A program made the position numbers and the translations under genes. Under the pieces are notes generated by a model. It was not told the DNA's origin and did no database searches. It saw nothing but the letters and a program-made list of their open reading frames with translations. A stretch of 64,000 nt of DNA from Gemmatimonadota bacterium (GTDB lineage: Bacteria > JAAXHH01), in the NCBI GenBank assembly GCA_009841265.1, contig VXMB01000014.1, positions 353,490-417,489 of the forward strand, read 5' to 3'. Positions 11,930 through 52,450 of this stretch are shown here, piece by piece. The first letter of the stretch is position 1. Each line of letters begins with the position of its first letter.

Positions 11930-12350
11930 TAAAATACACCAATAAAAATTAGTTTAATCGTATTATAATGAGTTTCGCCTTCACGGCCCCGCCCCGATTT
12001 CCACCCTTGCCGGAACACGACTAGCCCCCCTTGCCTCCGGTCCTGTACCGCAAGTACGGACCCGGAGACCGCGCCCGTCGCAGAAAAAAAGCAAAAAAGT
12101 GTTGACTTGGATAAAACTAATTATTAATTAAGCAAATACGATAGAAAAATAAGATAAATCGAAATGAATATAAATGGTGTCGCTCAGAATAATCCAATCA
12201 TTCGAGACCGGAATTCACACAATCTCCGATCGTTTAACGACTGTCCATTTCACGCAATGCACAGGACGGGAAAGGAGGACATATAGATCCGTGCCTTAAC
12301 GAAGCAGCGATTTTACAGCAAAGAGTAACAATCGATAAACGGGAGACCAT
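11930..12350. other. AT-rich island (estimated 60-65% AT by eye) in an otherwise GC-rich genome, immediately upstream of the collagen-like gene
   Basis: Contains A7 and A6 homopolymer tracts, TTGACT/TAATTA-like promoter elements, and a hairpin ccggtcctgtaccgcaagtacggacccgg. Confidence 0.6.
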
Positions 12351-12351
12351 A

Positions 12352-13758
12352 ATGCATTACCTCATAGTATTTGTGATTGCGTTCGCGCTTTCCGTGATGG
12401 GCTGCGAAGGCAAGACAGGTCCGGCGGGTCCGACCGGCTCGGCGGGTGCCGCAGGTCCGGCGGGTCCGGCGGGTCCCCAGGGATCGACTGGTCCGACTGG
12501 CCCGGCTGGCCCGGCTGGCCCGAAAGGTGACACGGGTGATTCTGGTCCGGCGGGTCCGGCAGGTCCGGCAGGTCCGGCAGGCCCCGAAGGTCCGGCAGGT
12601 CCGGCAGGTCCGCAGGGTGATCCTGGTGACCCGGCCACCATTGATCCAGGCAGCATCGGTAACATCCTGGCGGCTATTCACGAGGTCACGCTGATCCAGG
12701 ATGGCAATGACGATGCCTCCAACACCTTCGCTGGTCCTGGTTTCGCTGAGGGCGATCCGGGTGATGACTGGAATGTTACGCTGGACATCGGTGCAACCAC
12801 TGAGATAGCCGCCACGGCTTCCGCGCAGAACGAGGAGTCCATCCCCGTCGCGTTTGCGTGGGCGTCGGAAGATGCCGAGGTCGCGACGGTCGATGACGGC
12901 GTTATCGAAGGAGTCGGCGCCGGGGAAACCGACATCTCTGTGACCGTTGTGGGACGCGGGATCAAGGTTTCCTTTGAAGTCACGGTCCTTTCGCAGGTCA
13001 AGAGTATCGTTATGGACAGCCCCGCTGACGGGTTCTTCCTCACCAATGGTGAATCTGTAGCCCTTGCAGCCACTGCCTATGACAAAGCTCAAGACGATAA
13101 GACGGCGGAAAGGGACGGCAAAGAGGTTCCAGTCAGTCCATCCTTCATGAGCTCCGACGACAGCGTGATCGAGATCGATGGTTCCGAGGCCAACGCGGTC
13201 GGCGTCGGTTCCGCCAAGATCACCGCGCACTACGGAGACGTTGCGTCCAAGGCGATTACGATCAACGTGACGCCGGGCGGCGATGTTACCCATAAGCTTA
13301 CCTACACCATAATTGCCGCCTCCAAGCGTACCTTCACCAGAATCTATCAGACCGATGGTGAGACGCTGATTTCAAATGATCCGGTTCGCGGCCCGAGTTA
13401 TGATCCTGGGGATGACGCCACCGCGGCTGGTTCCGGCGGCGTGGGCGAGAATGTCGTCTTTACAGTTCAGGTTAGAGAGTACGACTCAGAAGGCAATGCC
13501 CCGATAGACGAAGGCTTCTCCGGCTCCATAACAGCTACAATCCAGCAACAGGGTAGCGTACTTGGCGCCGTCGCCAGCTCGGTTTCTGTAGGCAATCCCA
13601 GCGCCGGCATCGTCCAGGTAACTGTGAATAACGACGGCGATGGTAGCCAAATCACCGGTGAAGGTACGGCGCGCATCATCCTGAGTCTCGACGGAGCGGA
13701 TGACATCGCCCTGCCGGCCGTAATCGTCAAGAAGCAGGTATTGGAGGAACCGAGCTGA
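12352..13758 (+). CDS. collagen-like triple-helix repeat lipoprotein with C-terminal Ig-like (Big_2-type) domains
   Basis: 468 aa. Signal plus lipobox (…ALSVMGC). About 24 uninterrupted Gly-X-Y triplets ([26 protein letters not shown]…). This is followed by beta-rich repeats with Big_2-like signatures ([43 protein letters not shown]). Confidence 0.75.
12418..12636 (+). repeat. 9-nt periodic collagen (GXY) coding repeats
   Basis: Repeated ggtccggc(a/g) units. They encode the G-P-A/G-P-T triplets. Confidence 0.7.
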
Positions 13759-13996
13759 CAACACGCTATCGGATAATCCGGGCCCGTAGCCAGGGTGCAG
13801 ACAGAGTCCTGGAGCATCAATTATAGTTCTGAGGTGTCGCCCGTGGTTATCCAGAGTGAGGGTTGCCTTCGCGTCCCACCCTCGGGTGGTACTATCACCC
13901 TCATGCATTTGTATCAGGCACCTTGGAACGCCTTCCCGTTCGCCCCGAGTAGGAGCCACGGCCACTGAAAGGGGCGAGCGGCCTGAAAGACGAAAG

Positions 13997-14029
13997 CCCC
14001 GGCGCCCGAGCGCGCCGAGGCGTTTTATT
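13997..14029. terminator. putative bidirectional rho-independent terminator
   Basis: Stem ccccggcgc / gcgccgagg (8 of 9 bp) with loop ccgagc. Followed by cgttttatt on the plus strand and ctttcgtctttc on the minus strand. It lies at the 3' end of the lpxH-like gene. Confidence 0.35.
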
Positions 14030-14774: not shown

Positions 14775-14984
14775 AACAGGATCAGACCCGAAAAAGCACG
14801 GCAACCAAACCAGCCGGTTTTCCGGGCAACAGGGAGTATAACTTTGGATTGACAATTCACCTCGCGTGCGTTAATTAAAATACAATAGGCCATACATTTA
14901 ACTAACGAAATCTTTGGTCGCAATCGCAGTGCGCGAATGCCTCGGATTCGAGGCGTCGGCGTGGTGAACCGGAGAAGAGAACAG

Positions 14985-15407
14985 ATGGCGAGAAAGAAGC
15001 TGTCGTCGTTGACGGACCTGGAAATCGACATCATGAATGTCGTCTGGCGGCTGGGACGGGCGACGGTGCGCCAGATCGTCGATTCGCTTCGAAACCAGCG
15101 TCCCCTGGCGTACACCACGGTACAGACGGTCCTGTCCATACTCACTCAGAAGGGCGTGGTCCGGTATACCCGAGAAGGCCGGGCCTATGTCTACACCGCC
15201 ATCCTGAAACCCGAGGGCGTGCGCCGGGAAACCGTCCGGGCTGTCGTGGACAAGCTGTTCGCCGGATCGCCGCAGTCCCTGGTGCTGCACCTGATCGAAT
15301 CGGACGCGTTGACCGCGGAAGAAGCCGAGAGCCTGCGCAAACTGCTGGACCGGATGGCCTCGGAGTCGGTGGCGTCGGAGTCGAATCCGGAGGCATCGGA
15401 TGCTTGA
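14985..15407 (+). CDS. BlaI/MecI/CopY-family transcriptional repressor
   Basis: MARKKLSSLTDLEIDIMNVVW…TTVQTVLSILTQKG winged helix. It overlaps the downstream M56 sensor gene by 8 nt. Confidence 0.8.
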   Translation: MARKKLSSLTDLEIDIMNVVWRLGRATVRQIVDSLRNQRPLAYTTVQTVLSILTQKGVVRYTREGRAYVYTAILKPEGVRRETVRAVVDKLFAGSPQSLVLHLIESDALTAEEAESLRKLLDRMASESVASESNPEASDA

Positions 15408-17286
15408 TGCCGTCCACGCCATAGGCCTCTTCGAGCGGTTCGGCCGGGAGGTCGTGGACCTGCTGTGGCTTCCGAGCCTTGAAGCGTTGCTTCTCGGCGT
15501 CATGGTCTGGGCCCTGCTATTCGTGAACCCGGGATGCCCAGCCAGGATTCGGCACTTCCTCTGGCTGCTGGTTCTGGCCAAACCGCTGCTGACCCTCGTG
15601 CTGCCCTGGCATGGACCGTTCGAGATCCCGTGGGCGTCGATGGCGAGCCATGGATTGCCCGCCGCGGGCGATCACAACGCCCTGGCATCCGGAGTCTACG
15701 CCGTCGCGGGGCTGGTCTGGATGGGTTTCGCCGGTTTCGGCCTCTACCGCATCGGTTCATCGGTCATCACCATGTCCCGGCGAAGGCGGCGGTCCGTTCC
15801 GGTCGCCGTCCCCCGGGTAAGCGCGCTATTCGATCGGTGCCTGGCCGAATCGGGCTTGAAGCGCAGAGTGGCCCTGAGGGTCTCCGACGAGTTCGAGGTA
15901 CCCGTGCTGATCGCCGCCGGGCGCCCCGCCGTCGTGATTCCCTCCTGGTGCATCCTGGAACTTTCCAGCGCGGAGCTGAGGCAGGTCCTGCTTCATGAGC
16001 TGGCCCACTATGCCCGCCGGGATCACCTTACGGTCTTCCTGGTCCAGTTCTGCAGGTTCTTTTTCTTCTTCCACCCCGCGGTATGGTACGCCGCGTACCG
16101 GGCCGGGATCGAGGCGGAGCGGGCCTGCGACGCGGACGTCGTCCGTGTTTCCAGGCAGCCGGAGCGCTATGCATCCACCCTGTTGAAAGTTGCTGCGGGC
16201 AGGGTCCGGACGCACTGGCAGGCCGCCCTCGAACTGGCGCGGTCGGCCTCCATGGCGGCCCAGCGTATCCGGGACGTGCTCGGTTCGACGGTGAACCGGA
16301 AGGACCGCGCCTTCTTCCCGCTGCTGGCCGCCAGTATCTGCTCGCTGCTCGCGGTCATGCCCCTGTTGCGGCCGGCGGTCGAGGCCCCCGGAGACGTGCC
16401 TGTACCGCCACGAACGAGCATGCCCGGCGAACCGACGGTTCCCGGCCGGGTCGATACGGCGCCCGGTACGCAGCATCACGAAGATCCGGGCCCTGAGACG
16501 CAGGTCGCGCGGGTGGCGGACACGCCCCTGCCGCCGGACCGTCCGGCCAGTCGCAGGACCATGGTAGACGGCCGGCCCGCACCGCGCAGATCCATGGCCG
16601 CCAGGATGATAAAACCGGCGGTACCCCCTCGAGAAGGGATAGTCGAATCCACGAAGCGTGACCGGATCAACCCCGCCGTGCTCGGCCACGCCGCCCCACC
16701 GGTCATCCCGGATCGGACTTTGTCCGCGGGGAACCAGGCCAGGCAGAGACGTATCGAGGTGCAGGGCGTGGGCCGGACCGGCAATGAGCTGTTCGATCCC
16801 GGTACGGTCTCCCTGAGCGCCGGCTATTTCATTACACCGACCCACCAGTTCGGAGGCGTGTTTTCGATTCGAAAGCCCAACGATACGGAAGCATTTGACG
16901 ATACCCGGCGGCCTTCCGGCGCCCCGTACGGCGGTTCCCTCCTTCGGGCCCGGAGACTGGCCGGTTTCGGGACCTCGTCGGCCCAGGGAACGGTGCTTGA
17001 AACCTCAGAGGATGAGCAGGCCGAACGGATCACCCGGATCGGCGCCTTCTACCGGTACAATCTGCTCGTTCCGGGCGATTCCTTCACGCCTTTCTTCGGA
17101 TGGGGCGCCGGCCTGGAGATCAGGCCGCAGAACCGGAACATGACCATGATCGACGCCGGGGTCGGGCTGCGTTACTTCTGGGAACGGCACGTCGCCGTGG
17201 TCGTACAGGCATCCTACCGGAAGGAACTGGATGTCATCTCTCGTCCTTACCCTGAGATGACGCTGGGCTTTTCCGCGATCTTCTAG
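15400..17286 (+). CDS. BlaR1-like M56 peptidase/signal transducer with a proline-rich spacer and a C-terminal beta-barrel-like domain
   Basis: 628 aa. N-terminal TM helices and an HELAHYARRDH (HExxH) M56 motif. Pro-rich region at about aa 330-420. The C-terminus shows alternating hydrophobic strands and ends …LGFSAIF. Confidence 0.7.
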   Translation: MLDAVHAIGLFERFGREVVDLLWLPSLEALLLGVMVWALLFVNPGCPARIRHFLWLLVLAKPLLTLVLPWHGPFEIPWASMASHGLPAAGDHNALASGVYAVAGLVWMGFAGFGLYRIGSSVITMSRRRRRSVPVAVPRVSALFDRCLAESGLKRRVALRVSDEFEVPVLIAAGRPAVVIPSWCILELSSAELRQVLLHELAHYARRDHLTVFLVQFCRFFFFFHPAVWYAAYRAGIEAERACDADVVRVSRQPERYASTLLKVAAGRVRTHWQAALELARSASMAAQRIRDVLGSTVNRKDRAFFPLLAASICSLLAVMPLLRPAVEAPGDVPVPPRTSMPGEPTVPGRVDTAPGTQHHEDPGPETQVARVADTPLPPDRPASRRTMVDGRPAPRRSMAARMIKPAVPPREGIVESTKRDRINPAVLGHAAPPVIPDRTLSAGNQARQRRIEVQGVGRTGNELFDPGTVSLSAGYFITPTHQFGGVFSIRKPNDTEAFDDTRRPSGAPYGGSLLRARRLAGFGTSSAQGTVLETSEDEQAERITRIGAFYRYNLLVPGDSFTPFFGWGAGLEIRPQNRNMTMIDAGVGLRYFWERHVAVVVQASYRKELDVISRPYPEMTLGFSAIF

Positions 17287-17326: not shown

Positions 17327-18778
17327 ATGGATCATCATTCCCGAAGAGCGGTCCCGGCGCTCATCATCGCCGGCGGCGCGGGCGTGCGCCTTCAGGCGAT
17401 AACCGGCCCGGTGCCCAAACCTCTGTTGCACCTATGCGGCGTGCCGTTGATCAAGCGGATCATATTGACGGCCGCGCGTGCCGGCGTAACGCGCTTCGTG
17501 ATCGTAACGGGGTACGAGGCGGACCGATTTCACGAGGTCCTCTCCAACGATCCCGGTCTGGACGCCTGCCGGATTGAATGGGTGCACAACGAACGGTGGG
17601 ATCTGCCCAACGGGGTTTCCGCCCTGGCCGCCCGCTCCCGCCTGGCGGAACCGTTCGTGCTGCTCATGGCCGATCACCTCTTCGAGCAACGGACGCTGGA
17701 GCGTCTGCTCGAGGAACCGGTGGCCGAAGGGGAGTGCCTGCTCGCCGTCGACCGGAAAATCGACCGCGTGTACGACGTGGACGACGCGACCAAGGTCGAA
17801 GTGCGCGGGGATAAAGTGGTGCGCATCGACAAGGAACTGCAAGCGTTCAACGCGGTGGACACCGGCATGTTCCTCTGTACGCCGGCCCTGTTCGAAGCCC
17901 TCGATGCGGTGAACGGGCCGGAGGGATGCGCGTTGAGCGACGGCATCCGGGCGCTTGCCGCGGAAGGGCGGATGCGCGCCTTCGACGTGGGCGATGGTTA
18001 CTGGCAGGACGTGGATACGCCCGAGATGCTGGCCCAAGGCGAGAAGGCCCTGCTGGGACGCCTCGTAAAACCCACAGACGGATGGGTATCCCGGCATATC
18101 AACCGGCCGGTTTCAACCCGCATCAGCCGATGGCTGGTCCGGACGCCGGTCACGCCGAACATGGTGACCCTGGCCACCTTCCTTACCGGCCTGGCCGGGG
18201 CGTGGTTCGTGCTGGACGGCGCCTACTGGCCGGTGCTGCTGGGCGCGTTGCTTTTCCAGGTTTCGTCCATCCTCGACGGCTGCGACGGGGAGGTGGCGGT
18301 ACTGACCTTCCGTGAATCGAAATACGGCTCGTGGCTCGACACGATCACGGACAACCTGACCTACCTGGCGTTCTTCGCGGCCGTGGTCTGGGCCTACGCG
18401 GGCGGCTCCGGGGAAACGGTAATCCGGTACCTCGGCCTGGGATCCGTCGCCGTGGTGGCCGCCTCGATACTCGTAATGTACTATTATCTGCTGCAGACCG
18501 GGGGGAGCGGCAGCCTGGTCCGGTTCAACCGGGCCTTCGAAGCGCACGCCGTCGGACGGCGGCGCCATCTCTTCTCCAGGCTGCTCAACCTGTTCAGGAT
18601 GATGGCCAAACGAGATTTCTTTACCATGCTGCTGCTGTGTTTCGCCGCCCTCGACCTGCTGAACTGGATGTTCTGGACCGTTACGGCCGGCGGCCTGGCC
18701 ATGGGCCTGGCCATATTCATTTCGACGGGGAGGCTGCTGGCGCGGGACCGGGCGGTGGCCGGGGACATGCGCTCATGA
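17327..18778 (+). CDS. bifunctional sugar/alcohol-phosphate nucleotidyltransferase :: CDP-alcohol phosphotransferase (IPCT/DIPPS-like)
   Basis: 483 aa. N-terminus ALIIAGGAGVRL (NTP-transferase G-x-G-x-R-L). C-terminal TM domain with DGCDGEVAVLTFRESKYGSWLDTITD, matching D-x2-DG-x2-A(R)-x8-G-x3-D-x3-D with R replaced by V. HINRPVSTRISRWL precedes TM1. Confidence 0.7.
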   Translation: MDHHSRRAVPALIIAGGAGVRLQAITGPVPKPLLHLCGVPLIKRIILTAARAGVTRFVIVTGYEADRFHEVLSNDPGLDACRIEWVHNERWDLPNGVSALAARSRLAEPFVLLMADHLFEQRTLERLLEEPVAEGECLLAVDRKIDRVYDVDDATKVEVRGDKVVRIDKELQAFNAVDTGMFLCTPALFEALDAVNGPEGCALSDGIRALAAEGRMRAFDVGDGYWQDVDTPEMLAQGEKALLGRLVKPTDGWVSRHINRPVSTRISRWLVRTPVTPNMVTLATFLTGLAGAWFVLDGAYWPVLLGALLFQVSSILDGCDGEVAVLTFRESKYGSWLDTITDNLTYLAFFAAVVWAYAGGSGETVIRYLGLGSVAVVAASILVMYYYLLQTGGSGSLVRFNRAFEAHAVGRRRHLFSRLLNLFRMMAKRDFFTMLLLCFAALDLLNWMFWTVTAGGLAMGLAIFISTGRLLARDRAVAGDMRS

Positions 18779-19548
18779 GCGGATTGCTGGACCGTGCAAG
18801 GGGACTCTTCGCCCTCCGGCTCAGGAAGGACTTCAACTTCCGCAGGGCCCAGGAAACGGTCCCCGCGTTACGCTGGCTGAAGCCGCGCAAAGGCGAGCGT
18901 ATTCTCGATATCGGCTGCGGAGAAGGGACCTATGACTACCGGCTCGCCCTTCGGGGCGCCCGGGTGTTCGGTTTCGACCTGGACCGGAACCAGTTGCGCC
19001 GTGCCCAGGCCCACCACAAGACGCCCTTCACGGGTTTCGTCTGCGCCCATTCGGACGCGTTCCCCCTTCGGTCGGGGCAGTTCGACACGGTCATGAGCCT
19101 GTGTGTCTTCGAGCACCTGCCGGACGACAGGCAGACGCTGCGTGAGATGTGGCGCGTGTTGCGGCCCGGGGGGCGCATCCTGTTGACCCTGGACAGCCTG
19201 AGCCTCGAGGTGATCCGAGAGTCCTGGCGCGACGAGCACCGGAAACGCCATAGCGTCCTGCAGTTCTATACGCACCCGTCGGTCGGCTCGTTGCTGGAAG
19301 CCTGTGGATTCAGACTGATCAGGCACAGGTACCTGCTTCGTTCCCGGCTGGACCTGGCGTTGATCCGGCTGAGCTACGCCACGGAGCGCATGCACGCGGT
19401 CCCGGCGGCGTTGATCCGGTTGGGACTGGTATCGGCCGGCAGGATGGTATCCGCGGTCTTCAACCTGTTCACCGGGAACCAACGGGGATGGACCCTGTTG
19501 ATCGAAGCGGACAGGATGACCCCCGGTCCGGTGAATCCCCCATCATGA
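18775..19548 (+). CDS. class I SAM-dependent methyltransferase
   Basis: Starts MSGLLDRARG, overlapping the upstream stop as ATGA. ILDIGCGEGTY motif I and VFGFDLD motif II. The ORF-track start at 18331 is an out-of-context extension. Confidence 0.7.
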   Translation: MSGLLDRARGLFALRLRKDFNFRRAQETVPALRWLKPRKGERILDIGCGEGTYDYRLALRGARVFGFDLDRNQLRRAQAHHKTPFTGFVCAHSDAFPLRSGQFDTVMSLCVFEHLPDDRQTLREMWRVLRPGGRILLTLDSLSLEVIRESWRDEHRKRHSVLQFYTHPSVGSLLEACGFRLIRHRYLLRSRLDLALIRLSYATERMHAVPAALIRLGLVSAGRMVSAVFNLFTGNQRGWTLLIEADRMTPGPVNPPS

Positions 19549-21071
19549 CGCGTACCCAGGAACAGCCGGCTCCGACCCGGTCCCGGTCCGACGCATCGAC
19601 GATCGCCCGGGGCGCGGCCGTCAATTTCATTGGAACGGTAGCGCGGCTGATCAAGTCCGTGTCGTTCATCGTCCTAACGCGGCTGTTCGGCGCCGAGATC
19701 TTTGGGTTGTACATGCTCGGGTGGACCATCGTGGACCTCGTGTCGAAGGTCGGCCAGTTCTCGCTGGACAAGGGGCTGGTCAATTTCATCCCGCGCATGC
19801 GCGAGGACGGGGAAACGGAGGCCATCCACCGGACCATCGCGCAGGCCCTGGGCGTGGGCCTGCTGCTGAGCGCAGGGATCGGCGCCGCGCTCTATGCCGC
19901 TGCGGCTCCCCTGGCGGACGGCCTGCTCGACAAGCCCCGGCTTGCCGGCATGCTTCGGCTGCTGGCGGTCGGCCTGCCGCTCATCGCCCTGACCCAGATT
20001 ATCCTGGGCGTCACCCGGGCGCATAAGGTCATGAAGCACGACGCCATGGTCCGGGGCGCGGTCGAGCCGCTGGTGCTGTTCGGGGCGGCCTGTGTCCTGT
20101 TCTACCTGGGCTGGCGCACCTACGGCATCGCCGCGGCCCACCTGGCCGCGCTGGCCTGCGGCCTGCTATACGCCGTTTACGTGTTTACGAGGTTCTATTC
20201 CTGGCGGGCCTGTCTTGCCCACCTGCGCGCACTGCGGGCCGTCACCCCGCTGACCCGCTTCTCGCTGCCGGTCATGGGCTATGAACTGGTCTACATGTTC
20301 ATGATCCGCCTGGACGTGCTCATGGTCGGCTACTTTCTGCCGGCCGCACAGGTGGGGGTTTACGTGATCGCGGTCGAAATCGCCCTGGTGACCAAGAAGG
20401 TCCGGCAGTGGTTCGACCCCGTTTTCAGTCCCATCGTGGCCGAACTGAATCACCGCAACGACCTGCGGCGGCTGGAGCTCAACCTGCGGCTGGTCACCCG
20501 GTGGGTGCTGACCATCGGCCTGGCGTTCCTCTGCGTGGTGTCGCTGGTCGGTAACGAACTGCTTGGACTTTTCGGATCCGAATTCGTCGCGGGATTCATG
20601 ACGATGGTCGTCCTGGCCATGAGCCAGGTCGTCTACGCCGCCATGGGTTCGGGCGATACCGTGCTCATCATGTCGGGCCGGCCCTGGCTGAATCTCGTGA
20701 ATACGGTCGCGGTCGTGGCGGTCAATTTCGTCCTGAACCTGTGGCTGATACCGGCCCTGGGCATCCTGGGCGCGGCCCTGGGAACGCTGGCGGCTTTCGG
20801 GCTGTTGACGCTGATCCGCCTGGCCGAAGTGTATCACCTGTTCCGGATCCTTCCCCTGTCCTGGCGCATCCTGAAGCCATGCGCCGCAGCGGTCCCCGCC
20901 TTCGCGTGCGCTTACCTGGCGGGCGTCTACGCGCCGGATATCCCGTGGCTTCGCATGGCCGCGCTGCCCACGATCTTCCTGGCCGCCTACCTCGGCGTCC
21001 TGGGTCTCCTGGGGTTGGAAGAGGATGACCGGGTCGCCCTTCGACGCTTGCGCGGACGGGGCCGACCATGA
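19545..21071 (+). CDS. Wzx/MOP-superfamily polysaccharide or lipid flippase-like membrane protein
   Basis: About 508 aa from MTRTQEQP. Roughly 12-14 TM helices. The start overlaps the methyltransferase stop as ATGA. Confidence 0.65.
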   Translation: MTRTQEQPAPTRSRSDASTIARGAAVNFIGTVARLIKSVSFIVLTRLFGAEIFGLYMLGWTIVDLVSKVGQFSLDKGLVNFIPRMREDGETEAIHRTIAQALGVGLLLSAGIGAALYAAAAPLADGLLDKPRLAGMLRLLAVGLPLIALTQIILGVTRAHKVMKHDAMVRGAVEPLVLFGAACVLFYLGWRTYGIAAAHLAALACGLLYAVYVFTRFYSWRACLAHLRALRAVTPLTRFSLPVMGYELVYMFMIRLDVLMVGYFLPAAQVGVYVIAVEIALVTKKVRQWFDPVFSPIVAELNHRNDLRRLELNLRLVTRWVLTIGLAFLCVVSLVGNELLGLFGSEFVAGFMTMVVLAMSQVVYAAMGSGDTVLIMSGRPWLNLVNTVAVVAVNFVLNLWLIPALGILGAALGTLAAFGLLTLIRLAEVYHLFRILPLSWRILKPCAAAVPAFACAYLAGVYAPDIPWLRMAALPTIFLAAYLGVLGLLGLEEDDRVALRRLRGRGRP

Positions 21072-22357
21072 GATTCAGCGTAGTCCTGTTCGCGGATACG
21101 GACGCCCTGGCGGCCGGAGCCGGCCGGTCGATTTACGGCATATCGCTGCTGGAGCGACACCTCCGGGTCTTCGCATCCCTGGGGGCCCGGCAGGTCACGG
21201 TCGTCGGACCTTCGCCCGGGCGGGGATCGAACGTCCGGGAATCGAATATCCGGGTCGAGGGATTCGACGATCGCTGGTTCCGGGAACTGGACGCCGTCCA
21301 TTACGTACGTGCGGACGAAAGCCCCACCCGGTGGCTGCCCGGGAAGGACGAAAGGGCCCTGGTCATGGACGCCGGCCACCTGTACGACCCTCGGGTTCTA
21401 CGGGCCATGATCGACGGCAGCCCGAACCGGAGAGCCGAGGACTCGTCGGTCAGGGAATCCTGCAGGCTGCTGGTGGCGGACGCGGACCTCCTTGCAGGGA
21501 TCACGACGTCCTGGACCGGCTCCGAGTCGCTGTGGTCCGCGCTGGACTCGGTGCAGGAATCGGCCTGCCCGGTATTCGACCTGCGCGAAATGGATCCCTA
21601 TATCGTGGATCTGAGACGAAGTCTGCCCCCCTGGTGGCTGGTCGTCGATTCGGACCTGAAGATCCGCCGTGCGGAGGCCCTGCTGACCGACGCCGCGCAG
21701 AAGGGCACGCTGGATTTTCCCGCGGAGTTCATCCATCCGCCCCTTGAAAACCTGCTTACGAAATGGATTTCGGCCAGTACTGTGACGCCGAACCAGGTAA
21801 CCACCCTCTCTATACTGCTCGCCTTTCTGACCACCGGTCTTCTGGCCGCGGGACAGATGGGTACGGGATACCTGGCCGCCGGACTGGCGATCGCCTTTAT
21901 CGTCGGGGTGCTGGACGGTGTCGACGGCAAGTTGGCCCGCGTGACGGTGCGGTGCACCCGGTTCGGGGACCGTTACGAACATATCCTTGATGTGGTCTGG
22001 GAACTGACCTGGTATTGGGCACTGGGGTGGATGCTCAGTGCCGGCGGCGAGGCGGTCGGTCCTTTTGTGCTCGCCACGGTGATCACGTTATTTTACCTGT
22101 TTGACAAGGCGGCCACGGGGATGTTCAAGTCCAGGCAGGGCATAGAACTGTTTGACTATGCGCCCGTGGATCGCTTCTTTCGCCGTATCGGCGCCCGGCG
22201 AAATACGAATGTCCTGTTGCTGCTCGCGGGTATGGCGGTCGGCATGCTGGAGGAAGCGTTCACCTGCGTGGCGATCTGGACGGTGATCACGGCGGCGTTC
22301 CATTGGACGCGGGCGATCTGGCTGCTGTCGCAACCGTCGCCTGCCGACAGGTCCTGA
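21068..22357 (+). CDS. CDP-alcohol phosphotransferase with a divergent N-terminal cytoplasmic (nucleotidyltransferase-like?) domain
   Basis: 429 aa. The C-terminal TM domain has a canonical DGVDGKLARVTVRCTRFGDRYEHILD motif. The N-terminal 230 aa show no clear G-x-G-T-R motif. The start overlaps the flippase stop. Confidence 0.65.
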   Translation: MRFSVVLFADTDALAAGAGRSIYGISLLERHLRVFASLGARQVTVVGPSPGRGSNVRESNIRVEGFDDRWFRELDAVHYVRADESPTRWLPGKDERALVMDAGHLYDPRVLRAMIDGSPNRRAEDSSVRESCRLLVADADLLAGITTSWTGSESLWSALDSVQESACPVFDLREMDPYIVDLRRSLPPWWLVVDSDLKIRRAEALLTDAAQKGTLDFPAEFIHPPLENLLTKWISASTVTPNQVTTLSILLAFLTTGLLAAGQMGTGYLAAGLAIAFIVGVLDGVDGKLARVTVRCTRFGDRYEHILDVVWELTWYWALGWMLSAGGEAVGPFVLATVITLFYLFDKAATGMFKSRQGIELFDYAPVDRFFRRIGARRNTNVLLLLAGMAVGMLEEAFTCVAIWTVITAAFHWTRAIWLLSQPSPADRS

Positions 22358-22646
22358 TTCCGCCGGTCGAGAGAACTAAGGGAACCGGGTACGCTCGCCG
22401 GATGTGCCACTTCCGTGCATGGACCGGCCATCGCTATTTGTTGGATCAATAGGTGGACAGATGCGTCTAATATACTTGAGAAAGCGAGCATTTACGATTG
22501 CGGTGGGTCGACGCGTGAAGCGAGTCGGCGATTACGGCGACCACAGTGAGTCGGCGACTACATCGATTATGGCGGGTCGGCGACCACAGATATCACGGCG
22601 CGTCGACCCGTACGGTGAGAAGACCCCTGCGAGAAGCGGAGGCATC

Positions 22647-24050
22647 GTGTTTCGTGTTCTGGCTCACATCCTGGCGGTATTGCTGATCGCGGGGCCGGTA
22701 TTCGCGCAGAGCCCGAACGGACCCGTCCAGGCCGACCAGGATGACCAGGCCGTCCGGTCCGTCCAGGCTGTCCGGATGACGCTGGAACAATGCGTGGATC
22801 GGGCGCTGCGGGTCAGTCCGGATATCGAACAGGCTGTCCTTACCGTCGAAGGCCTGGAAGCCAGGTTGAGCGAAGCGAGATTCGCGGGCATCACACCCCG
22901 GTTGCAATGGACCAATATCTTCGGTCCCGCGCCGGGCATAGAAGGCGACACGGAACAGATCGAGACCATCCGGAGCGACCTGACCGATCTGGGCGTTTTC
23001 TCACGCACGCAGATCGAACTGGTTCAGCCACTGTACACCTTCGGGAAGCTCAGTAACGCGAAGAAGGCGGCCGGGTACGGTCTCGAAGCGGGCGAGGCGG
23101 CCGTGGAATCCCGGAAGTTCGACGTGGCGTTCCAGGTGAAGAAGCTGTTCTACGGACTCGTACTGGCGGGGGAACTCAGGGACATCATCCTGGATAGCGT
23201 AGAAAAGGTACAGGAGGCCCGGGACCGCGTAAACGAGATGATCGAGGAGGACTCGGAAGACGTCGGCCAGAACGACCTGTTGAAAATCGATGTCTTCGAA
23301 TTCGAGGTGCAGCAGAGCCGGGCGCGGGCCGAGAAGTCGATCGAAATGGGGAGGGCGGCGCTGAAGACCCTGCTCGAAATAGACCGCTCCGTTGATTTCG
23401 ATATCGTCCATACAGCCGCGGAGATCGAACCGGCGGACCTCGAAGAACTGGACGATTATATAGAACGGGCGAAGAACCGGCGGTACGACATCCGGCAGCT
23501 GAGGGCCGGAGTGCTGGCCCGCCGGGCGCTGCTGAAGGTGGCCAGGAGCGACTTCTACCCCCAGATCGCCCTGGCGGGATCGCTCCAGTGGGGCATCGCA
23601 CCGCACAGGCCGGAGCTCGACAATCCTTTTCTCAGGGACGAGTTCAATTTCCTTCGCGGCGGTGCCGTGATTACCTTGCGCCAGAACTTCAACTTCGGCC
23701 TGACCCGCGCGAAGTACATTGCCCGCAAGGTGGAACTGGAAGCGCTGGTGAGCAAGGAATCCCAGGCGATGAGCGCGGTCGCGCTGCAGGTGGAGCAGAC
23801 CTACCGCGACGTGATCGAGGCCCGTACCAACGTGGTCAACAGCGACCGGGCCCTTCGCTCCGCCAGGGCATGGCTGACATCGGCTCAACTGGGTTTCGAT
23901 GTTACCGGAGACAGTTCGGAACTGCTGGACGCGTTTACCGCGCATGCGAAGATGCAACATGCGTACCGGCAGTCGCTGTACCAGTACCGGGTTTCGCTGG
24001 CCGAACTCGGTCATGTGACCGGCAACGGGATTTACAATGGGCGGCGCTGA
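22647..24050 (+). CDS. TolC-family outer-membrane efflux protein
   Basis: GTG start 5 nt after GGAGG. Signal peptide VFRVLAHILAVLLIAGPVFAQ. Two repeated coiled-coil/barrel halves typical of OEP family members. Confidence 0.7.
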   Translation: MFRVLAHILAVLLIAGPVFAQSPNGPVQADQDDQAVRSVQAVRMTLEQCVDRALRVSPDIEQAVLTVEGLEARLSEARFAGITPRLQWTNIFGPAPGIEGDTEQIETIRSDLTDLGVFSRTQIELVQPLYTFGKLSNAKKAAGYGLEAGEAAVESRKFDVAFQVKKLFYGLVLAGELRDIILDSVEKVQEARDRVNEMIEEDSEDVGQNDLLKIDVFEFEVQQSRARAEKSIEMGRAALKTLLEIDRSVDFDIVHTAAEIEPADLEELDDYIERAKNRRYDIRQLRAGVLARRALLKVARSDFYPQIALAGSLQWGIAPHRPELDNPFLRDEFNFLRGGAVITLRQNFNFGLTRAKYIARKVELEALVSKESQAMSAVALQVEQTYRDVIEARTNVVNSDRALRSARAWLTSAQLGFDVTGDSSELLDAFTAHAKMQHAYRQSLYQYRVSLAELGHVTGNGIYNGRR

Positions 24051-24083
24051 TCACGGTGCCGCGTTTGAAGCACGGAACGGAGG

Positions 24084-25070
24084 ATGGGAATGAACCATAG
24101 GCGTGGGGAGGCGGGTTTGGGACGTGGTACATCGGCGCGCAAGGCGCGGTGCACGCCGGCGTACAAGGTGCAGAGCACGCCGGCAAGCAGAGCGCGGGGT
24201 TGGCCGGCCGGCAGGGCGTTCGGATTGCTGGCGGGCGCGGGCCTGCTGATCTGCGCCGCGTTCATCGATCCGTCTTCCGTCCTTCGCACGGACTCGGAGC
24301 CACAGGTGCTGACGGCCCCAGAGTCCAGGACGGCCTGGACGGTTTGGCCGCGGACCGCCTCGTTCTTTCCGGGTGTCGCGCGGGCGGACCATGCGGACCA
24401 TGCGGGCTATGCGGACTATGCGTCCCCTCCCCAGCGGGGCGATGGCCAACGAAAGTCCATCACGATCGAAGCCTTCGACGATTCGGCCCCGGGCGGCTTT
24501 CCCCTGACCTGGAAAGCCTGGCGGGGCGACGACGACCTGGCCCGCAGTTTGTACACGATACGGGAGGAGAAGGGCAACCGGTATCTCCACGCGGCAGACG
24601 ACGGCTCCTCCGTCATCATTCTCAAGCAAGTCAATGAATGGGATGCGAACGAATACCCGGTGCTGTCCTGGCGATGGAGGGCGACGGTCCTGCCCGAAGA
24701 CGGCGATGAACGCATCCGATCCAAAAACGACAGTTCCGTGGCCGTATACGTGGTCCTGGACCAGAACTTCATCGGCGTGCCCAAGACCCTGAAATATGTC
24801 TGGAGCACCACCGTGCCGGTCGGTACCCATTACCGCCGCGAAGGTATCGGCCGCCCCCACGTGATCGTACTCGAGACCGGAAAGGAGAAACTCGGACAGT
24901 GGGTCGAGGAGTCGGTCGACGTGCATGCGGACTATGTCCGGATCTTCGGGAAGAAGCCGCCCAGGAAAGCCGTCGGGATCGGCATTCTGACGGATGGCAA
25001 CGCGACGGGAACGGATTCCAGGGGAGATTACGACGACTTCGTGGTTCATCGCCGGGACTCCGGGTCCTGA
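24084..25070 (+). CDS. DUF3047-like secreted/membrane-anchored protein
   Basis: 328 aa. Hydrophobic N-terminal anchor. The C-terminal about 200 aa (FPLTWKAWRGDD…VLSWRWRATVLPEDGDE…YVVLDQNF) resembles the DUF3047 family. Assigned from memory only. Confidence 0.45.
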   Translation: MGMNHRRGEAGLGRGTSARKARCTPAYKVQSTPASRARGWPAGRAFGLLAGAGLLICAAFIDPSSVLRTDSEPQVLTAPESRTAWTVWPRTASFFPGVARADHADHAGYADYASPPQRGDGQRKSITIEAFDDSAPGGFPLTWKAWRGDDDLARSLYTIREEKGNRYLHAADDGSSVIILKQVNEWDANEYPVLSWRWRATVLPEDGDERIRSKNDSSVAVYVVLDQNFIGVPKTLKYVWSTTVPVGTHYRREGIGRPHVIVLETGKEKLGQWVEESVDVHADYVRIFGKKPPRKAVGIGILTDGNATGTDSRGDYDDFVVHRRDSGS

Positions 25071-25104
25071 TCCGGCCTGCAGCAAGAAAGGATGGAGGTG
25101 GGAA

Positions 25105-25704
25105 ATGCATGTGAATCGCCGTGCGGTCCGCCGCCTGGGACGCTTTACCGCCTGGGCTGCGGTGTCGCTGCTGGCTTTCGGGAGTTACGCGCAGGAATAC
25201 TCGCCCATCGAGACGCTGAAGCAGCGGGACGCCGCGCTACGCGCCCTGGACGGGGCCGCCACCGAAGCGGCAATGGACAGCCTGGTGCGCCATGCCGTCG
25301 TCTCCGGGTTCGATTTCGAACGGCACAGCCGCATTTCACTCGGCAGGCACTGGCGGGAGCGGACGGACACCGAGCGGGAGGAGTTCGTTTCGGTCCTGCG
25401 CAGGTGGACCGAAAGCCGGGCACTGGACAAGCTGCGCAAGCGATCGGACAGGACGACGTACGACGGGGAAGAAACCCGGGGCAGCCGGTCGCTGGTGAGA
25501 ACGACGCTATGGTACAAGGGCACTAAAACGCTCGTCGATTACAAGATGGAGCTCAAAGCGGGCGAATGGCTCATCTATGACATGGTGATCGACGGGGCGA
25601 GTGTCGCGCTGGCCAACCGGGACGCATTCTACAAGAAGATCAGCAGGACATCCTACGACGAATTGCTCAACACCCTGCGTGCGAAAACCCTTGAAATAGA
25701 ATAG
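25105..25704 (+). CDS. MlaC/Ttg2D-family periplasmic lipid-binding protein
   Basis: Starts MHVNRRAVRRLGRFTAWAAVSLLAFGSYA (signal peptide). GGAGG RBS. Typical MlaC length and helical composition. Confidence 0.65.
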   Translation: MHVNRRAVRRLGRFTAWAAVSLLAFGSYAQEYSPIETLKQRDAALRALDGAATEAAMDSLVRHAVVSGFDFERHSRISLGRHWRERTDTEREEFVSVLRRWTESRALDKLRKRSDRTTYDGEETRGSRSLVRTTLWYKGTKTLVDYKMELKAGEWLIYDMVIDGASVALANRDAFYKKISRTSYDELLNTLRAKTLEIE

Positions 25705-25784
25705 CGAAACGAGTATACTTTCAAGCCTGTACTGTATACTCGAATTGAGTAATGTAACGATGTCCTATGTTTTTAGGAGACGGA

Positions 25785-27227
25785 ATGGCGGCGACTGCCT
25801 ACAATCGATGTATCTTTTTCCTCGTCGACGGCGCACGGGAAGACGTCATGCGGAAAATGATCGAGGCCGGCGAACTTCCGTCCCTGCGGCGATACATCCT
25901 CGACCGGGGAGATTACCGGAAAGCGGTGACCTCGTTCCCGTCCACGACCGGTCCGGCCCATGTGCCCTTTTTGACCGGCTGTACGCCCGGTACGTGCAAT
26001 CTCCCCGGCATCCGCTGGTTCGACCGGTCCCAGCCGGAGGGGCTTACCCATTTCCGGCAGGCGCGCAGTTACGTGGGACCGGGTGGACTTTATATCGACA
26101 GCGATCTTAGGGACGGTATCCACACCATCTTCGAATATTTCGAACGCCCGGCGGGGGTGTTCAGCCTGGTGAACAAGGGGTTGGGCATATTCGAAAACCG
26201 GACGTTGCTGACCAGGAACTGGTACCTGTATTACGCCCATTTATCCGGCCGGTGGCAGGTCATGGACGCCGCGGCCTGGAGGTACATCGACCGGGCCGTC
26301 GACCGGGGCGTGGATTTCCTGTCGGTCGTATTCCCGGCGGTGGACGAATACTCCCATTATACCGATCCGTTTTCGGACACCACGTTGGAGGCCTACCGGG
26401 CATTCGACCGGGGATTCGGCGGGCTGGCGGAGCGGCTTCAGCAGCTGAACATGCTGGACGACACGCTTCTCGTGGTCTCCAGCGATCATGGCCTGACCTC
26501 CACCCATACGCATTTCGAGCTATGGTCCTTTCTCGACGAAATCGGATTCAATACGCTGTACTATCCCCGGATCCTGCGCGGTGGATGCGACGCGGCAATG
26601 ATGGTCTCGGGCAACGGCATGGCGCATATCTACCTGAAGAAGGGCGAAACCTGGGAAGAAAGGCCTTCATACGATGAGATCCGCGCATTGGGGGAAACCG
26701 ATCCCATCGAGGCCCTGCTCGAACAGGAGGCGGTAGACCTGGTGGCGGCGACCCGGGAGGACTCGGTCATCGTCTGCGGGCGCCGGGGGATCAGTGAAAT
26801 CAGGGAGATGCCCGGCGGTATCGGGTACCGGGTGCTCGAGGGCAAGGATCCTTTCGGCTACGGCGGCATGCCGGCCGAAGCGTCCCATGAGCAGATGCTC
26901 TCCGCCACGTACGACTCGGACTATCCCGACGCGCTTTACCAACTGCTGCGCGTCTTCGGTTCGCCGCGGTCCGGAGACATGATCGTCAGCGCCCGAAAGG
27001 GCTACGATCTGAGATTCCGGCATGAACATCCCGAGCACAAGTCGACCCACGGTTCATTGCATCGCGACCATATGCACGTGCCTTTGATGATGAACACGGA
27101 CATTGCGGCGGAATGCGTCCGCACCGTGGACGTGTTCCCCGCCATGCTGAACCTGACGGGACGTTCCGTCAGGGGTACCATAGACGGCAGAGATTCCGTC
27201 ACCGCCGCCACGCGCGCGGTGGCGTAG
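25785..27227 (+). CDS. alkaline-phosphatase-superfamily phosphodiesterase/nucleotide pyrophosphatase-like enzyme
   Basis: 481 aa from MAATAYNRCIFFLVDGARED (metal-binding D-G-x-R). AGGAG RBS. Type I phosphodiesterase fold signatures (SFPSTTGPAH, SSDHG). Confidence 0.65.
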   Translation: MAATAYNRCIFFLVDGAREDVMRKMIEAGELPSLRRYILDRGDYRKAVTSFPSTTGPAHVPFLTGCTPGTCNLPGIRWFDRSQPEGLTHFRQARSYVGPGGLYIDSDLRDGIHTIFEYFERPAGVFSLVNKGLGIFENRTLLTRNWYLYYAHLSGRWQVMDAAAWRYIDRAVDRGVDFLSVVFPAVDEYSHYTDPFSDTTLEAYRAFDRGFGGLAERLQQLNMLDDTLLVVSSDHGLTSTHTHFELWSFLDEIGFNTLYYPRILRGGCDAAMMVSGNGMAHIYLKKGETWEERPSYDEIRALGETDPIEALLEQEAVDLVAATREDSVIVCGRRGISEIREMPGGIGYRVLEGKDPFGYGGMPAEASHEQMLSATYDSDYPDALYQLLRVFGSPRSGDMIVSARKGYDLRFRHEHPEHKSTHGSLHRDHMHVPLMMNTDIAAECVRTVDVFPAMLNLTGRSVRGTIDGRDSVTAATRAVA

Positions 27228-27237
27228 GAGCATATTC

Positions 27238-28347
27238 ATGTCCGAACAGGTTCAGATCTCACCGGCGGTGGAACCCATCGCGCCGTCTCCCGCGCATCCC
27301 GGACCACCCGCACCGCCCGTACTGCAGCCGGACGCGGGCTATCTCGGATACGACCGCACGTTGTTGCGGCCCATGTCCTTCGCCACGAAGCTTCGCGCCT
27401 TGCTCAAATACGTTTGGGTGCGAATAAAGGGCGGACCGATGGCGGTAAACATGGAGGTGACCTACCTCTGCAACGCCACCTGCGATTTCTGTGATTACTG
27501 GAAGACGAAACGTTCGGGCAAGCTGGGCGACTACGATTACGTGGCGGCGCTTCGGAAGCTGAACCCCCTGACGGTCACCCTGACCGGCGGCGAACCCACG
27601 ATCAACAAGCAACTGCCCGAGGCGGTCAGGCGCATCAAGGAATCCCTGGGATTCGTCTACATCGGCATGGTCACCCACGGATCTCTTCTGACCGTGGAAA
27701 AGGCCATGGCCCTGTGGGATGCCGGCCTGGACCACATCTCGATTTCGTTGAATTACATCGGACGCGAACATGACGAGGAACGGGGCATCGAGGGTCTCTA
27801 CGAGCATATCACCACGCTCGTGCCCCATTTGACGGCCCGGGGGGTCAACGTGATCTTCAACACAGTGATCATGCGGGAGAACCTGGACCACGTCGTACCC
27901 ATAGCGCACCTGGCGCGTACCATGGGCGCGAAGGTTTCCTACAGCTGTTACAGCGACTTCAAGAACGGGAACGAAACCCACCTGGTGGATTCGGCCCACG
28001 CCGAACGGCTGGAGTCCGTGATCGAAGATCTGATTTATCAGAAATCACGCTTAGGGAACATCGTCAGTTCCGCCTGGTACTTGCGCCGCATTCCCGCCTA
28101 TTTCCAGGATTCCCTACCACGGTCCTGCACGGCGGCGGGCAAGTGGCTGGTGCAACTGACCCCCGACGGTGACATAAAGACCTGCGCGGAACTGCCCGTA
28201 TCGTCCGGATACGCCGACTTCAAAAAGGTCTCGAAGAAGATCGACTGCAACCGGTGCTGGTACAGTTGCCGGGGCGAGACGGAATCTTCGTTAAAGATCG
28301 GAAGGTTGCTGGAGGGCCTGGAAAGGGTCTGGAAAGCGGGCGTCTAA
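27238..28347 (+). CDS. radical SAM enzyme (C-terminal Cys-rich, SPASM/twitch-like)
   Basis: 369 aa. CNATCDFCDYW (CxxxCxxC). C-terminal cysteines CTAAG…C…CNRCWYSC. Confidence 0.7.
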   Translation: MSEQVQISPAVEPIAPSPAHPGPPAPPVLQPDAGYLGYDRTLLRPMSFATKLRALLKYVWVRIKGGPMAVNMEVTYLCNATCDFCDYWKTKRSGKLGDYDYVAALRKLNPLTVTLTGGEPTINKQLPEAVRRIKESLGFVYIGMVTHGSLLTVEKAMALWDAGLDHISISLNYIGREHDEERGIEGLYEHITTLVPHLTARGVNVIFNTVIMRENLDHVVPIAHLARTMGAKVSYSCYSDFKNGNETHLVDSAHAERLESVIEDLIYQKSRLGNIVSSAWYLRRIPAYFQDSLPRSCTAAGKWLVQLTPDGDIKTCAELPVSSGYADFKKVSKKIDCNRCWYSCRGETESSLKIGRLLEGLERVWKAGV

Positions 28348-52449: not shown

Positions 52450-52450
52450 C

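Follow-up and report, generated by a model that had tools for sequence, protein, structure and literature searches.

A candidate envelope-lipid locus around IPCT/DIPPS-like fusion enzymes in a sponge-associated Gemmatimonadota genome

Gene content of the locus

We analyzed a 64,000-nucleotide stretch (here called the window) of contig VXMB01000014.1, which belongs to a Gemmatimonadota metagenome-assembled genome (MAG) from a sponge metagenome, and focused on a cluster of nine genes, g1 to g9. The first gene encodes an IPCT/DIPPS-like fusion of a cytidylyltransferase with a CDP-alcohol phosphotransferase, the fourth encodes a paralogue of it, and the others include a flippase, an outer-membrane factor, and a lipid carrier (Table 1). 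Comparison of g1 homologues shows a large, sequence-distinct branch of IPCT/DIPPS that is wired to lipid-transport machinery in mesophilic, mostly uncultured phyla. Exact copies of g1 are also present on ENGE20-1_SAMN12347671 scaffold_6 (ENA) and in GCA_009836475.1, and the complete relative OZ220749.1 carries a g1 with 94% identity. At NCBI, near-identical proteins go under the names Gemmatimonadota bacterium or Gemmatimonadetes bacterium.

As outlined in the original prediction, which was made from the sequence alone, nine co-directional open reading frames (ORFs) on the + strand fill positions 17327 to 28347. Pfam searches agreed with every domain named for these genes, and the three ATGA start/stop overlaps described between neighboring genes occur in the sequence, at 18775, 19545, and 21068. 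Gene calls on identical contigs place the likely true starts later than those of the longest ORFs for g5 (22647 rather than 22404), g6 (24090), g7 (25105 rather than 24994), and g8 (25785); with the later starts of g5 and g7, the signal peptide falls at the N terminus. The extent of the cluster held for the nine genes but not for its proposed beginning at g1, as the unit probably begins at a BlaI/BlaR1-like pair (14937 to 17286), of which the BlaR1-like gene stops 40 bp before g1. This pair always lies directly upstream of g1 in Gemmatimonadota-like relatives, and the M56 gene adjoins g1 in comparison loci (given L numbers throughout) L007 to L011, L035, L088, L095, and L096. The region farther upstream is also syntenic in Gemmatimonadota-like genomes, so conservation within this lineage alone is weak evidence. 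A scan for promoters and terminators across 13.7 to 28.7 kb gave counts not above those in shuffled sequence and was uninformative on operon boundaries. Matches to the NCBIfam families DVU_1551 and DVU_1556 were weak, under the cut-offs, and equally uninformative.

Table 1. Genes of the cluster and the upstream pair, with positions in the window
Feature	Position	Strand	Basis
BlaI-type (Penicillinase_R) repressor, putative cluster regulator	14937..15407, start may be 14985	+	Pfam PF03965, E 3.6e-33
BlaR1-like M56 membrane sensor-protease	15400..17286	+	Pfam Peptidase_M56, E 2.7e-33; hydrophobic segments
g1: clade-B IPCT/DIPPS-like fusion	17327..18778	+	NTP_transferase/NTP_transf_3 + CDP-OH_P_transf
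g2: class I SAM methyltransferase (Methyltransf_11/25), accessory module	18775..19548	+	ATGA overlap with g1
g3: MOP-superfamily (Polysacc_synt/Wzx-like) flippase, accessory module	19545..21071	+	ATGA overlap on each side
g4: g1 paralogue, predicted degenerated cytidylyltransferase-like N-domain + six-transmembrane CDP-alcohol phosphotransferase	21068..22357	+	C-terminal CDP-OH_P_transf
g5: TolC-like outer-membrane factor (OEP, two repeats), signal peptide	22647..24050	+	Pfam OEP, E 1.4e-38; 467 aa
g6: DUF3047 protein	24090..25070	+	Pfam DUF3047, E 2e-36
g7: MlaC/HpnM-like periplasmic lipid carrier, signal peptide	25105..25704	+	Pfam MlaC, E 6e-28
g8: NPP/alkaline-phosphatase-superfamily hydrolase, predicted cytoplasmic	25785..27227	+	Pfam Phosphodiest, E 3.7e-27
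g9: radical SAM enzyme	27238..28347	+	Pfam Radical_SAM, E 3e-20

The fusion enzyme g1 and its paralogue g4

The g1 protein combines an inositol-1-phosphate-cytidylyltransferase-type domain (approximately residues 9 to 245) with a six-transmembrane (6-TM) CDP-alcohol phosphotransferase that carries the signature D317xxD320G321xxA324V...G334xxxD338xxxD342. It matched the Archaeoglobus fulgidus IPCT/DIPPS structure 4mnd over its full length (E value, 2.6e-52), and its N-domain matched the IPCT structures 2xme and 4jd0 at ∼1e-24, with the next nucleotidyltransferase at 7.5e-12. Over the whole length of the NCBIfam IPCT/DIPPS equivalog model NF041135, g1 scored 241.5 bits, under the 580-bit cut-off. 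In an alignment of 19 homologues, G17/G19/R21, K31, and D116 were invariant, as were D317, D320, D338, and D342; R21, K31, and D116 correspond to the residues called catalytic in TmIMPCT (PMC12275187). Like the rest of its clade (clade B, below), g1 is predicted to keep the cytidylyltransferase domain as well as the metal and nucleotide site. The transferase domain has 7 of the 8 residues of the CDP-alcohol phosphotransferase signature, the arginine of the AR motif being replaced by Val325. Among transferase models, the TM domains of g1 and g4 scored best, after IPCT/DIPPS, against PIPS and AIPS (51 and 45 bits for g1; 42 and 25 bits for g4), all under the NCBIfam cut-offs of 170 to 180 bits.

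A neighbor-joining tree of 81 g1 homologues split cleanly into two clades, A and B, with the window g1 in clade B. Clade A proteins (∼435 to 465 aa) come from archaea and many subsurface bacteria, and clade B proteins are longer (∼478 to 534 aa). The identity of the window g1 to clade A was 41% in the nucleotidyltransferase domain, which is almost free of clade-specific substitutions, 59% in the juxtamembrane helix (JM1), 36% in TM1-3, and just 12% in TM4-6. Three features are invariant in clade A: the AR-motif Arg, a D4-R-Y-A-D motif on TM3, and R-D-x-R at the start of TM5; their clade B counterparts are A-K/V (mostly K), D-N-L-T/S-Y, and R-D-F-F, and clade B also carries two insertions in TM4-6 (381 to 392 and 410 to 419).

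Structures of phosphatidylinositol phosphate (PIP) synthase assign the nucleotide site to TM1-3 and the inositol-phosphate acceptor pocket to TM4-6, where the acceptor phosphate is held by two arginines, one of them within an RxxR motif (PMC4634129). Taken together with this assignment, the remodelled TM4-6 suggests that clade B keeps the donor side and uses a different acceptor. The donor half-reaction would remain the conversion of CTP together with inositol-1-phosphate into CDP-inositol, with CDP binding retained, and the acceptor would differ from the canonical one and probably be less anionic. The TM5 motif of g1 may correspond to the RsPIPS residues R153/R191 and the RxxR motif there, a match located past TM4, where the HMMER alignments end.

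The N-domain of g4 (residues 1 to ∼195) had been described as different from that of g1. Our results instead point to a degenerated copy of the same fold. A profile-profile alignment joined g4 to g1 over 405 columns (probability, 99.9%; E value, 1.6e-36), with eight residues deleted in g4 exactly at the GxGxRL...PK nucleotide loop. The AlphaFold (AF2) model of g4 had a predicted local distance difference test (pLDDT) score of 91.7, and its best Foldseek matches were 4mnd and AF2299, with 4q7c, 4o6n, and 4o6m at target-normalized TM-scores of 0.81 to 0.82; the N-domain alone also resembles RmlA, MurU, and PntC. Based on the full-length alignment, the loop deletion, and the AF2299-like structure, g4 is predicted to be a full-length paralogue of g1 in which a pseudo-cytidylyltransferase is fused to a 6-TM transferase. 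Thus, the IPCT/DIPPS-type two-domain fold originally proposed for both enzymes was upheld, through the full-length match to 4mnd for g1 and through the model and profile for g4, and a CDP-alcohol transferase fold was recognized in each.

The transferase motif of g4 is a variant, D283xxD286G287xxA290R291...G300xxxE304xxxD308, in which E304 stands in place of the third signature Asp (D3) in the majority consensus of a 39-sequence alignment. D107, R109, Y178, R183, and a basic patch (R369/R372/R377/R378) are invariant in the g4 family, for which we found 508 matches with generic annotations only. Supporting the idea that g1 and g4 act in one pathway, the two are fused into one 934-aa ORF in Latescibacterota locus L020 (9989 to 12793), followed by a methyltransferase, a SPASM radical SAM gene, and a MOP flippase. 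In Emcibacter sp. (L091; GCA_048269205.1), g4 is accompanied by a CDP-alcohol phosphotransferase, an unknown gene, and a MOP flippase, with MIPS and an IPCT-like nucleotidyltransferase nearby, the latter scoring 118 bits against the model's IPCT half. A Chthoniobacterales locus (L094) has two g4-like genes together with a CDP-alcohol phosphotransferase, two nucleotidyltransferases, HAD, SDR, MOP, radical SAM, MacB, MFP, two OEP genes, and MIPS. The g4 homologue in L092, in turn, adjoins a CTP_transf_like gene and an aminotransferase, not MIPS. These neighborhoods tie the family to inositol and flippases, and not all contexts involve inositol.

Related three-domain proteins of ∼665 to 672 aa (P0192, P0197 to P0199, P0211, P0216, and L090, 10001 to 12019) consist of an active-looking NTP transferase joined to a complete g4-like unit (pseudo-nucleotidyltransferase plus CDP-alcohol phosphotransferase). 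The sole three-domain context that we looked at, L090, has no transport or MIPS genes.

Gene neighborhoods and modularity

A scan of one genome per species yielded 80 loci, compared with 10-kb flanks, in which the two clades differ sharply in their surroundings. MIPS lies immediately upstream of g1 in 16 of 40 clade A loci, and transport genes (OEP, MlaC, MMPL, MOP) are adjacent in none of the 40. At least one of these transport genes is adjacent in 28 of 39 clade B loci (Fisher's P of 9e-13, ignoring phylogeny); OEP and MlaC each adjoin g1 in 25 of the 39. This difference strongly supports the earlier argument for an envelope product over a cytoplasmic solute.

The whole cluster is present in Gemmatimonadota-like genomes. 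At least six further lineages have some of its genes near a g1 or g4 homologue, in differing orders, which argues that the grouping exceeds chance. The Latescibacterota series is GT4, OEP, g1, MlaC, MMPL, GMC, GFO, with g1 flanked by OEP and MlaC. The KSB1 arrangement is g1, DUF3047, OEP, MlaC, SDR, and radical SAM, and Longimicrobiales carry MMPL, g1, MOP, and g4. Nitrospirota locus L089 consists of MIPS, a PIPS-like gene, g1, and MMPL, and in Methylomirabilota locus L041 (1589 to 12532), MMPL, MlaC, SHC, MIPS, g1, and radical SAM genes lie in a row. An LPG_synthase_TM gene diverges from the g1-radical SAM pair in a “Deltaproteobacteria” MAG (L097). The linkage thus spans phyla, and a known O-antigen/capsule/teichoic-acid locus was rejected because neither the nine genes nor their immediate neighbors include a priming phosphoglycosyl transferase, glycosyltransferase, Wzy, or TagF-type gene.

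MIPS is directly beside clade B g1 in L089 and L041 and beside the g4 clusters of L091 and L094. Because it was found only in related loci, the link to inositol is indirect for the genome studied here.

Two lineages show further variations. In Methylomirabilota L071, the MMPL-MlaC-SHC-MIPS-g1-radical SAM run is joined by a second g1 paralogue (30% identity), and hopanoids may serve as substrates of the inositol-phosphate transferase in Methylomirabilota. We did not adopt a hopanoid link for the window cluster, as SHC was confined to Methylomirabilota among 90 loci and none occurs in the window. In L087 (14826 to 18038) and 15 other Latescibacterota loci, OEP, g1, MlaC, and MMPL are followed downstream by a conserved trio encoding a 266-aa protein without a Pfam match, a GMC oxidoreductase, and a GFO/IDH/MocA oxidoreductase, often with a polyprenyl synthase thereafter.

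Comparison of the loci separates a core module of g1, OEP, DUF3047, MlaC, the NPP-type hydrolase, and the radical SAM enzyme from an insertable accessory module of methyltransferase, MOP, and g4. This division is based on the marine JGI contig L096 (g1 67% identical), which encodes BlaI, BlaR1, g1, OEP, DUF3047, MlaC, the alkaline-phosphatase-superfamily hydrolase, and radical SAM and is otherwise intact without methyltransferase, MOP, and g4. The methyltransferase follows g1 in L012, L020, and L088 and is absent from L095 and L096. MOP co-occurs with g4 homologues in L012, L037, L088, L091, L094, and L095; in L020 it accompanies the fused g1-g4 gene. L095 consists of g1, MOP, and g4, then a different radical SAM gene, a gene of unknown type, and OEP, and L088 additionally encodes a SPASM radical SAM enzyme and an unknown protein of 521 aa. 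The minimal conserved pair in several phyla is g1 and radical SAM, the latter being directly downstream of g1 in Nitrospira, Myxococcota, Methylomirabilota, and “Deltaproteobacteria” loci. A protein of 521 to 536 aa without a Pfam match (L088, 16272 to 17837; L012, 5920 to 7482; L095, 15552 to 17162) always comes after the SPASM radical SAM gene in the stretch that separates g4 from OEP and is absent from the window.

The remaining cluster proteins have features of an envelope-directed system on one hand and of cytoplasmic enzymes on the other. The g3 flippase has ∼12 to 14 hydrophobic segments, and g5 has a hydrophobic N-terminal segment. The g6 protein starts with a single membrane anchor, followed by a disordered linker and a DUF3047 domain that forms a beta-sandwich resembling carbohydrate-binding modules and lectins, and the best NCBIfam match of g7 is HpnM (52.9 bits, under the cut-off of 160). 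Neither g8, which also lacks TM helices, nor g9 has a signal peptide or hydrophobic segment, and both are therefore predicted to be cytoplasmic. The g8 protein matches NPP in the PDB weakly and contains an FPSTTGPAH stretch that we take to resemble the NPP nucleophile motif. In g9, the CX3CX2C motif is C78/C82/C85, and five C-terminal cysteines (297, 316, 337, 340, and 344) are conserved, from which a twitch/SPASM-like domain for an auxiliary cluster is predicted; PqqE and the PTO1314 family come out as the nearest relatives of g9, with low scores.

We also noted further features in and around the cluster. The BlaR1-like M56 protein (15400 to 17286, +) has a long Pro/Arg-rich linker, and its C-terminal ∼150 residues end in ...TLGFSAIF, which resembles an outer-membrane beta-barrel terminus; as the sensor domain of an M56 protein, this would be out of the ordinary. 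A 1938-aa ORF (28344 to 34160, −) made of two complete UvrA copies in tandem runs convergently to g9 and overlaps the g9 stop codon; such a giant UvrA gene (1920 to 1956 aa) also follows the cluster in L001 and L096. Upstream, a low-GC patch (12001 to 14000; GC of 0.574 versus ∼0.64) contains a gene for a 468-aa protein with collagen triple-helix repeats and a Big_2 domain (12352 to 13758, +), which may be a eukaryote-like sponge-symbiont protein or horizontally acquired. The window further encodes three GFO/IDH/MocA oxidoreductases (35203 to 36246, 37545 to 38690, and 52412 to 53434, +), inositol dehydrogenases being members of this family, and two PhyH-type dioxygenases (45151 to 45966, −; 59616 to 60563, +); no link of either group to the cluster was established. 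A large DUF6785/DUF6784 protein (1597 to 3537, +) lies beside a DUF6051 protein (242 to 1519, −), adjacent to a PFOR-type oxidoreductase pair.

Proposed pathway, alternatives, and known systems

We think there is about an even chance that the locus is a biosynthesis and export island for an envelope lipid whose head group derives from a CDP-activated inositol phosphate. From the homologies, motif changes, and gene linkages observed above, we infer each chemical step of the following scheme. The starting substrate would be L-myo-inositol-1-phosphate, supplied by MIPS encoded elsewhere in the genome, and the g1 N-domain, given its homology and conserved catalytic residues, would cytidylylate it to CDP-inositol. 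The 6-TM domain of g1 would then pass on the inositol phosphate, though not to free inositol-1-phosphate as in canonical DIPPS; the remodelled pocket and the gene neighborhood suggest that the acceptor is most likely a membrane lipid or lipid-bound head group. Presumably unable to make its own CDP-alcohol, g4 would carry out the pathway's second phospho-alcohol transfer and may either anchor inositol phosphate to a lipid, like PIP synthase, or add a second unit.

In the subsequent steps, g8 would remove a terminal phosphate or trim a phosphodiester, in parallel to the conversions of di-myo-inositol-phosphate phosphate (DIPP) to di-myo-inositol phosphate (DIP) and of PIP to phosphatidylinositol (PI); its predicted cytoplasmic location would fit dephosphorylation after DIPPS- or PIPS-type reactions. 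The g2 methyltransferase and the g9 radical SAM enzyme may tailor the product. The MOP flippase g3 would move the lipid over the inner membrane, a place that may be filled in other phyla by an MMPL/RND pump or an LPG_synthase_TM protein. The g7 carrier would take the lipid through the periplasm, and g5 and the anchored, lectin-like g6 would act at or near the outer membrane. The upstream BlaI/BlaR1-like pair probably regulates the operon.

A broader proposal, which we advance tentatively and think somewhat more apt to fail than to hold, is that clade B IPCT/DIPPS enzymes are CDP-inositol:lipid inositolphosphotransferases that define an undescribed class of inositol-phosphate outer-membrane lipids. 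This class would occur in many diderm phyla, for the most part uncultivated (Gemmatimonadota, Latescibacterota, KSB1, Methylomirabilota, Nitrospirota, Myxococcota, and Verrucomicrobiota), and would travel by a previously unrecognized MlaC-like/TolC-like/DUF3047 route. The lipid could carry two inositol-phosphate units when g4 is present, and the inner-membrane translocators (MOP, MMPL, and LPG_synthase_TM) would be interchangeable.

Several observations weigh against an inositol lipid. As the original prediction had noted for MIPS and IMPase, no MIPS, IMPase, CdsA, or PgsA gene was found in the 64-kb window (tblastn with a MIPS query and Pfam scans of the remaining plausible ORFs), and MIPS is adjacent in only 2 of the 39 clade B loci. 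AF2299, a CDP-glycerol binder, gave a better score for the TM1-3 region of g1 than AfDIPPS did (97.6 versus 78.2 bits). Only six TM helices are present in each of g1 and g4, an architecture linked by Clarke et al. to soluble acceptors, and the closest characterized relatives, AfDIPPS and AF2299, do not process lipids. The IPCT-like enzyme CpgD uses phosphoglycerate instead and makes CDP-glycerate for an outer-membrane sphingolipid (PMC12275187). The Fisher tests ignore phylogeny, with 17 of the transport-linked loci belonging to Latescibacterota, and co-localization in close Gemmatimonadota relatives is partly general synteny of the region. Finally, the literature searched reports no lipid of the proposed kind for these phyla.

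Some of these points would fit an envelope lipid of the same architecture with a different head group, in which g1 activates a different phospho-acid or phospho-alcohol (phosphoglycerate or glycerol phosphate, for example) and the two transferases build an anionic lipid free of inositol. CpgD is structurally IMPCT-like and nonetheless makes CDP-glycerate (PMC12275187), and the AF2299-leaning score of TM1-3, the window without MIPS, the surroundings of the g4 homologue in L092, and the position of g1 far under the equivalog cut-off (241 versus 580 bits) all lean the same way. We nevertheless consider this explanation unlikely, given that the nucleotidyltransferase domain, at 41% identity to MIPS-linked clade A, has almost no clade-specific substitutions, that IPCT structures outscore other nucleotidyltransferases by 12 orders of magnitude in E value, and that MIPS does adjoin clade B g1 (L089 and L041) and g4 clusters (L091 and L094). 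A departure in the other direction would keep the substrates soluble: the locus would make DIP-, glycero-phospho-inositol (GPI)-, or diglycerol phosphate (DGP)-type compatible solutes for a marine symbiont, with g8 as the final phosphatase and the transport genes either unrelated or solute exporters. Cytidylyltransferase, transferase, and phosphatase together would complete the logic of DIP synthesis, the closest characterized homologues are solute-type enzymes with soluble substrates, and six TM helices are the arrangement linked to such acceptors. This is difficult to square with transport and lipid-carrier genes at 28 of 39 clade B loci versus 0 of 40 canonical ones, in several phyla and differing orders, or with the loss from the acceptor pocket of Arg/Asp residues that are invariant in canonical DIPPS. 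In addition, MlaC proteins carry lipids, not solutes, and DIP is a marker of (hyper)thermophiles, whereas sponge symbionts are mesophiles, and we regard a soluble product as improbable.

Least probable in our view, and very doubtful, is a teichoic-acid-like poly(polyol-phosphate) chain or decoration built on a polyprenyl-linked carrier and flipped by the Wzx-like MOP protein. MOP/Wzx flippases normally act on polyprenyl-diphosphate-linked units, the two phospho-alcohol transferases could act repeatedly, and the DUF3047 fold is carbohydrate-binding-module-like. Such a polymer would nonetheless have to be made by a cluster with no glycosyltransferase, priming phosphoglycosyl transferase, polymerase, or chain-length regulator, in which the MOP gene is dispensable for the core (L096) and the conserved partners MlaC and MMPL handle lipids.

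Inositol lipids are considered rare in bacteria, and IPCT/DIPPS genes routinely receive a compatible-solute annotation and are interpreted as signs of adaptation to heat or pressure. If the wiring of the clade B branch to lipid transport is borne out, many “DIP synthesis” annotations in metagenomes would be wrong, and a new family of anionic envelope lipids, along with a Kennedy-type bacterial route to inositol lipids, would await discovery. Functions could then be proposed for DUF3047, for the pairing of TolC-like and MlaC proteins, and for the radical SAM family that partners these enzymes most closely.

The gene combination could not originally be matched to a described pathway, and our literature searches likewise gave no description of clade B or of the cluster. 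With A. fulgidus IPCT/DIPPS (AF0263; 4mnd), g1 shares the two-domain architecture, the catalytic R/K/D residues, the four metal/catalytic Asp residues, and six TM helices. It differs in belonging to a separate clade, in reaching only 241 of the 580 bits required, in lacking the AR-motif Arg, in the replacement of D4-R-Y-A-D and R-D-x-R, and in the two TM4-6 insertions; moreover, canonical IPCT/DIPPS is linked to MIPS, whereas g1 is flanked by lipid-transport genes. Its score, its signature Arg position, its acceptor residues, and apparently its neighborhood are thus four features that place g1 outside IPCT/DIPPS proper. AF2299 (4o6m/4o6n/4q7c) shares with g4 a non-catalytic cytidylyltransferase-like domain and a 6-TM transferase (target-normalized TM-score, 0.82). 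At only 15% identity, and with a Glu at the third Asp, its own invariant residues, and a MOP flippase and g1 alongside, g4 is best described as AF2299-like in predicted architecture but a distinct family. PIPS and archaeal AIPS belong to the same CDP-alcohol phosphotransferase subfamily as g1 and g4, and their pathway, like the one proposed here, needs a subsequent phosphatase. Scores for g1 and g4 are far lower than the respective cut-offs (25 to 51 versus 170 to 180 bits), and PIPS and AIPS use a CDP-lipid donor, whereas the cytidylyltransferase of g1 itself implies a CDP-alcohol donor.

The transport genes recall two lipid-trafficking systems. HpnM is the best NCBIfam match of g7, and in other phyla g1 lies beside MlaC and MMPL, and in Methylomirabilota beside SHC; the window differs from HpnM/HpnN in having neither MMPL nor SHC and in the 52.9-bit score of g7 against a cut-off of 160. 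Of the Mla system, only MlaC is present in the window, without MlaD/MCE, MlaE, MlaF, or MlaA, and it is accompanied by a TolC-like OEP and DUF3047, which is not a described arrangement. In the Caulobacter CPG2 pathway, the IPCT-like CpgD activates phosphoglycerate, which is added as a second anionic head-group unit on an outer-membrane lipid (PMC12275187). An IPCT-like cytidylyltransferase activating a phospho-compound for an outer-membrane lipid would be common to both; the CPG2 pathway differs in using phosphoglycerate and ceramide and in having no fused CDP-alcohol transferase, and the window shows no ceramide-synthesis genes.

The nearest idea in the literature is the alternative, Kennedy-like cluster of Bacteroides vulgatus and Prevotella, for which an NTP transferase and a CDP-alcohol phosphatidyltransferase were proposed, in a still unconfirmed scheme, to form CDP-inositol and hand inositol phosphate on to a lipid (Heaver et al. 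2022, PMC9246714). Nucleotidyltransferase and CDP-alcohol phosphotransferase activities are likewise predicted here, and the Bacteroidetes cluster has an LPG_synthase-type neighbor (BT_1521 homologue), like L097. In that cluster the activities are encoded by separate genes with a HAD hydrolase and an adjacent MIPS, whereas the window has a fusion, no HAD, and no MIPS. Unlike the Bacteroidetes cluster, the window adds a second, pseudo-fused paralogue, a methyltransferase, a radical SAM enzyme, an NPP-type hydrolase, and an outer-membrane export set.

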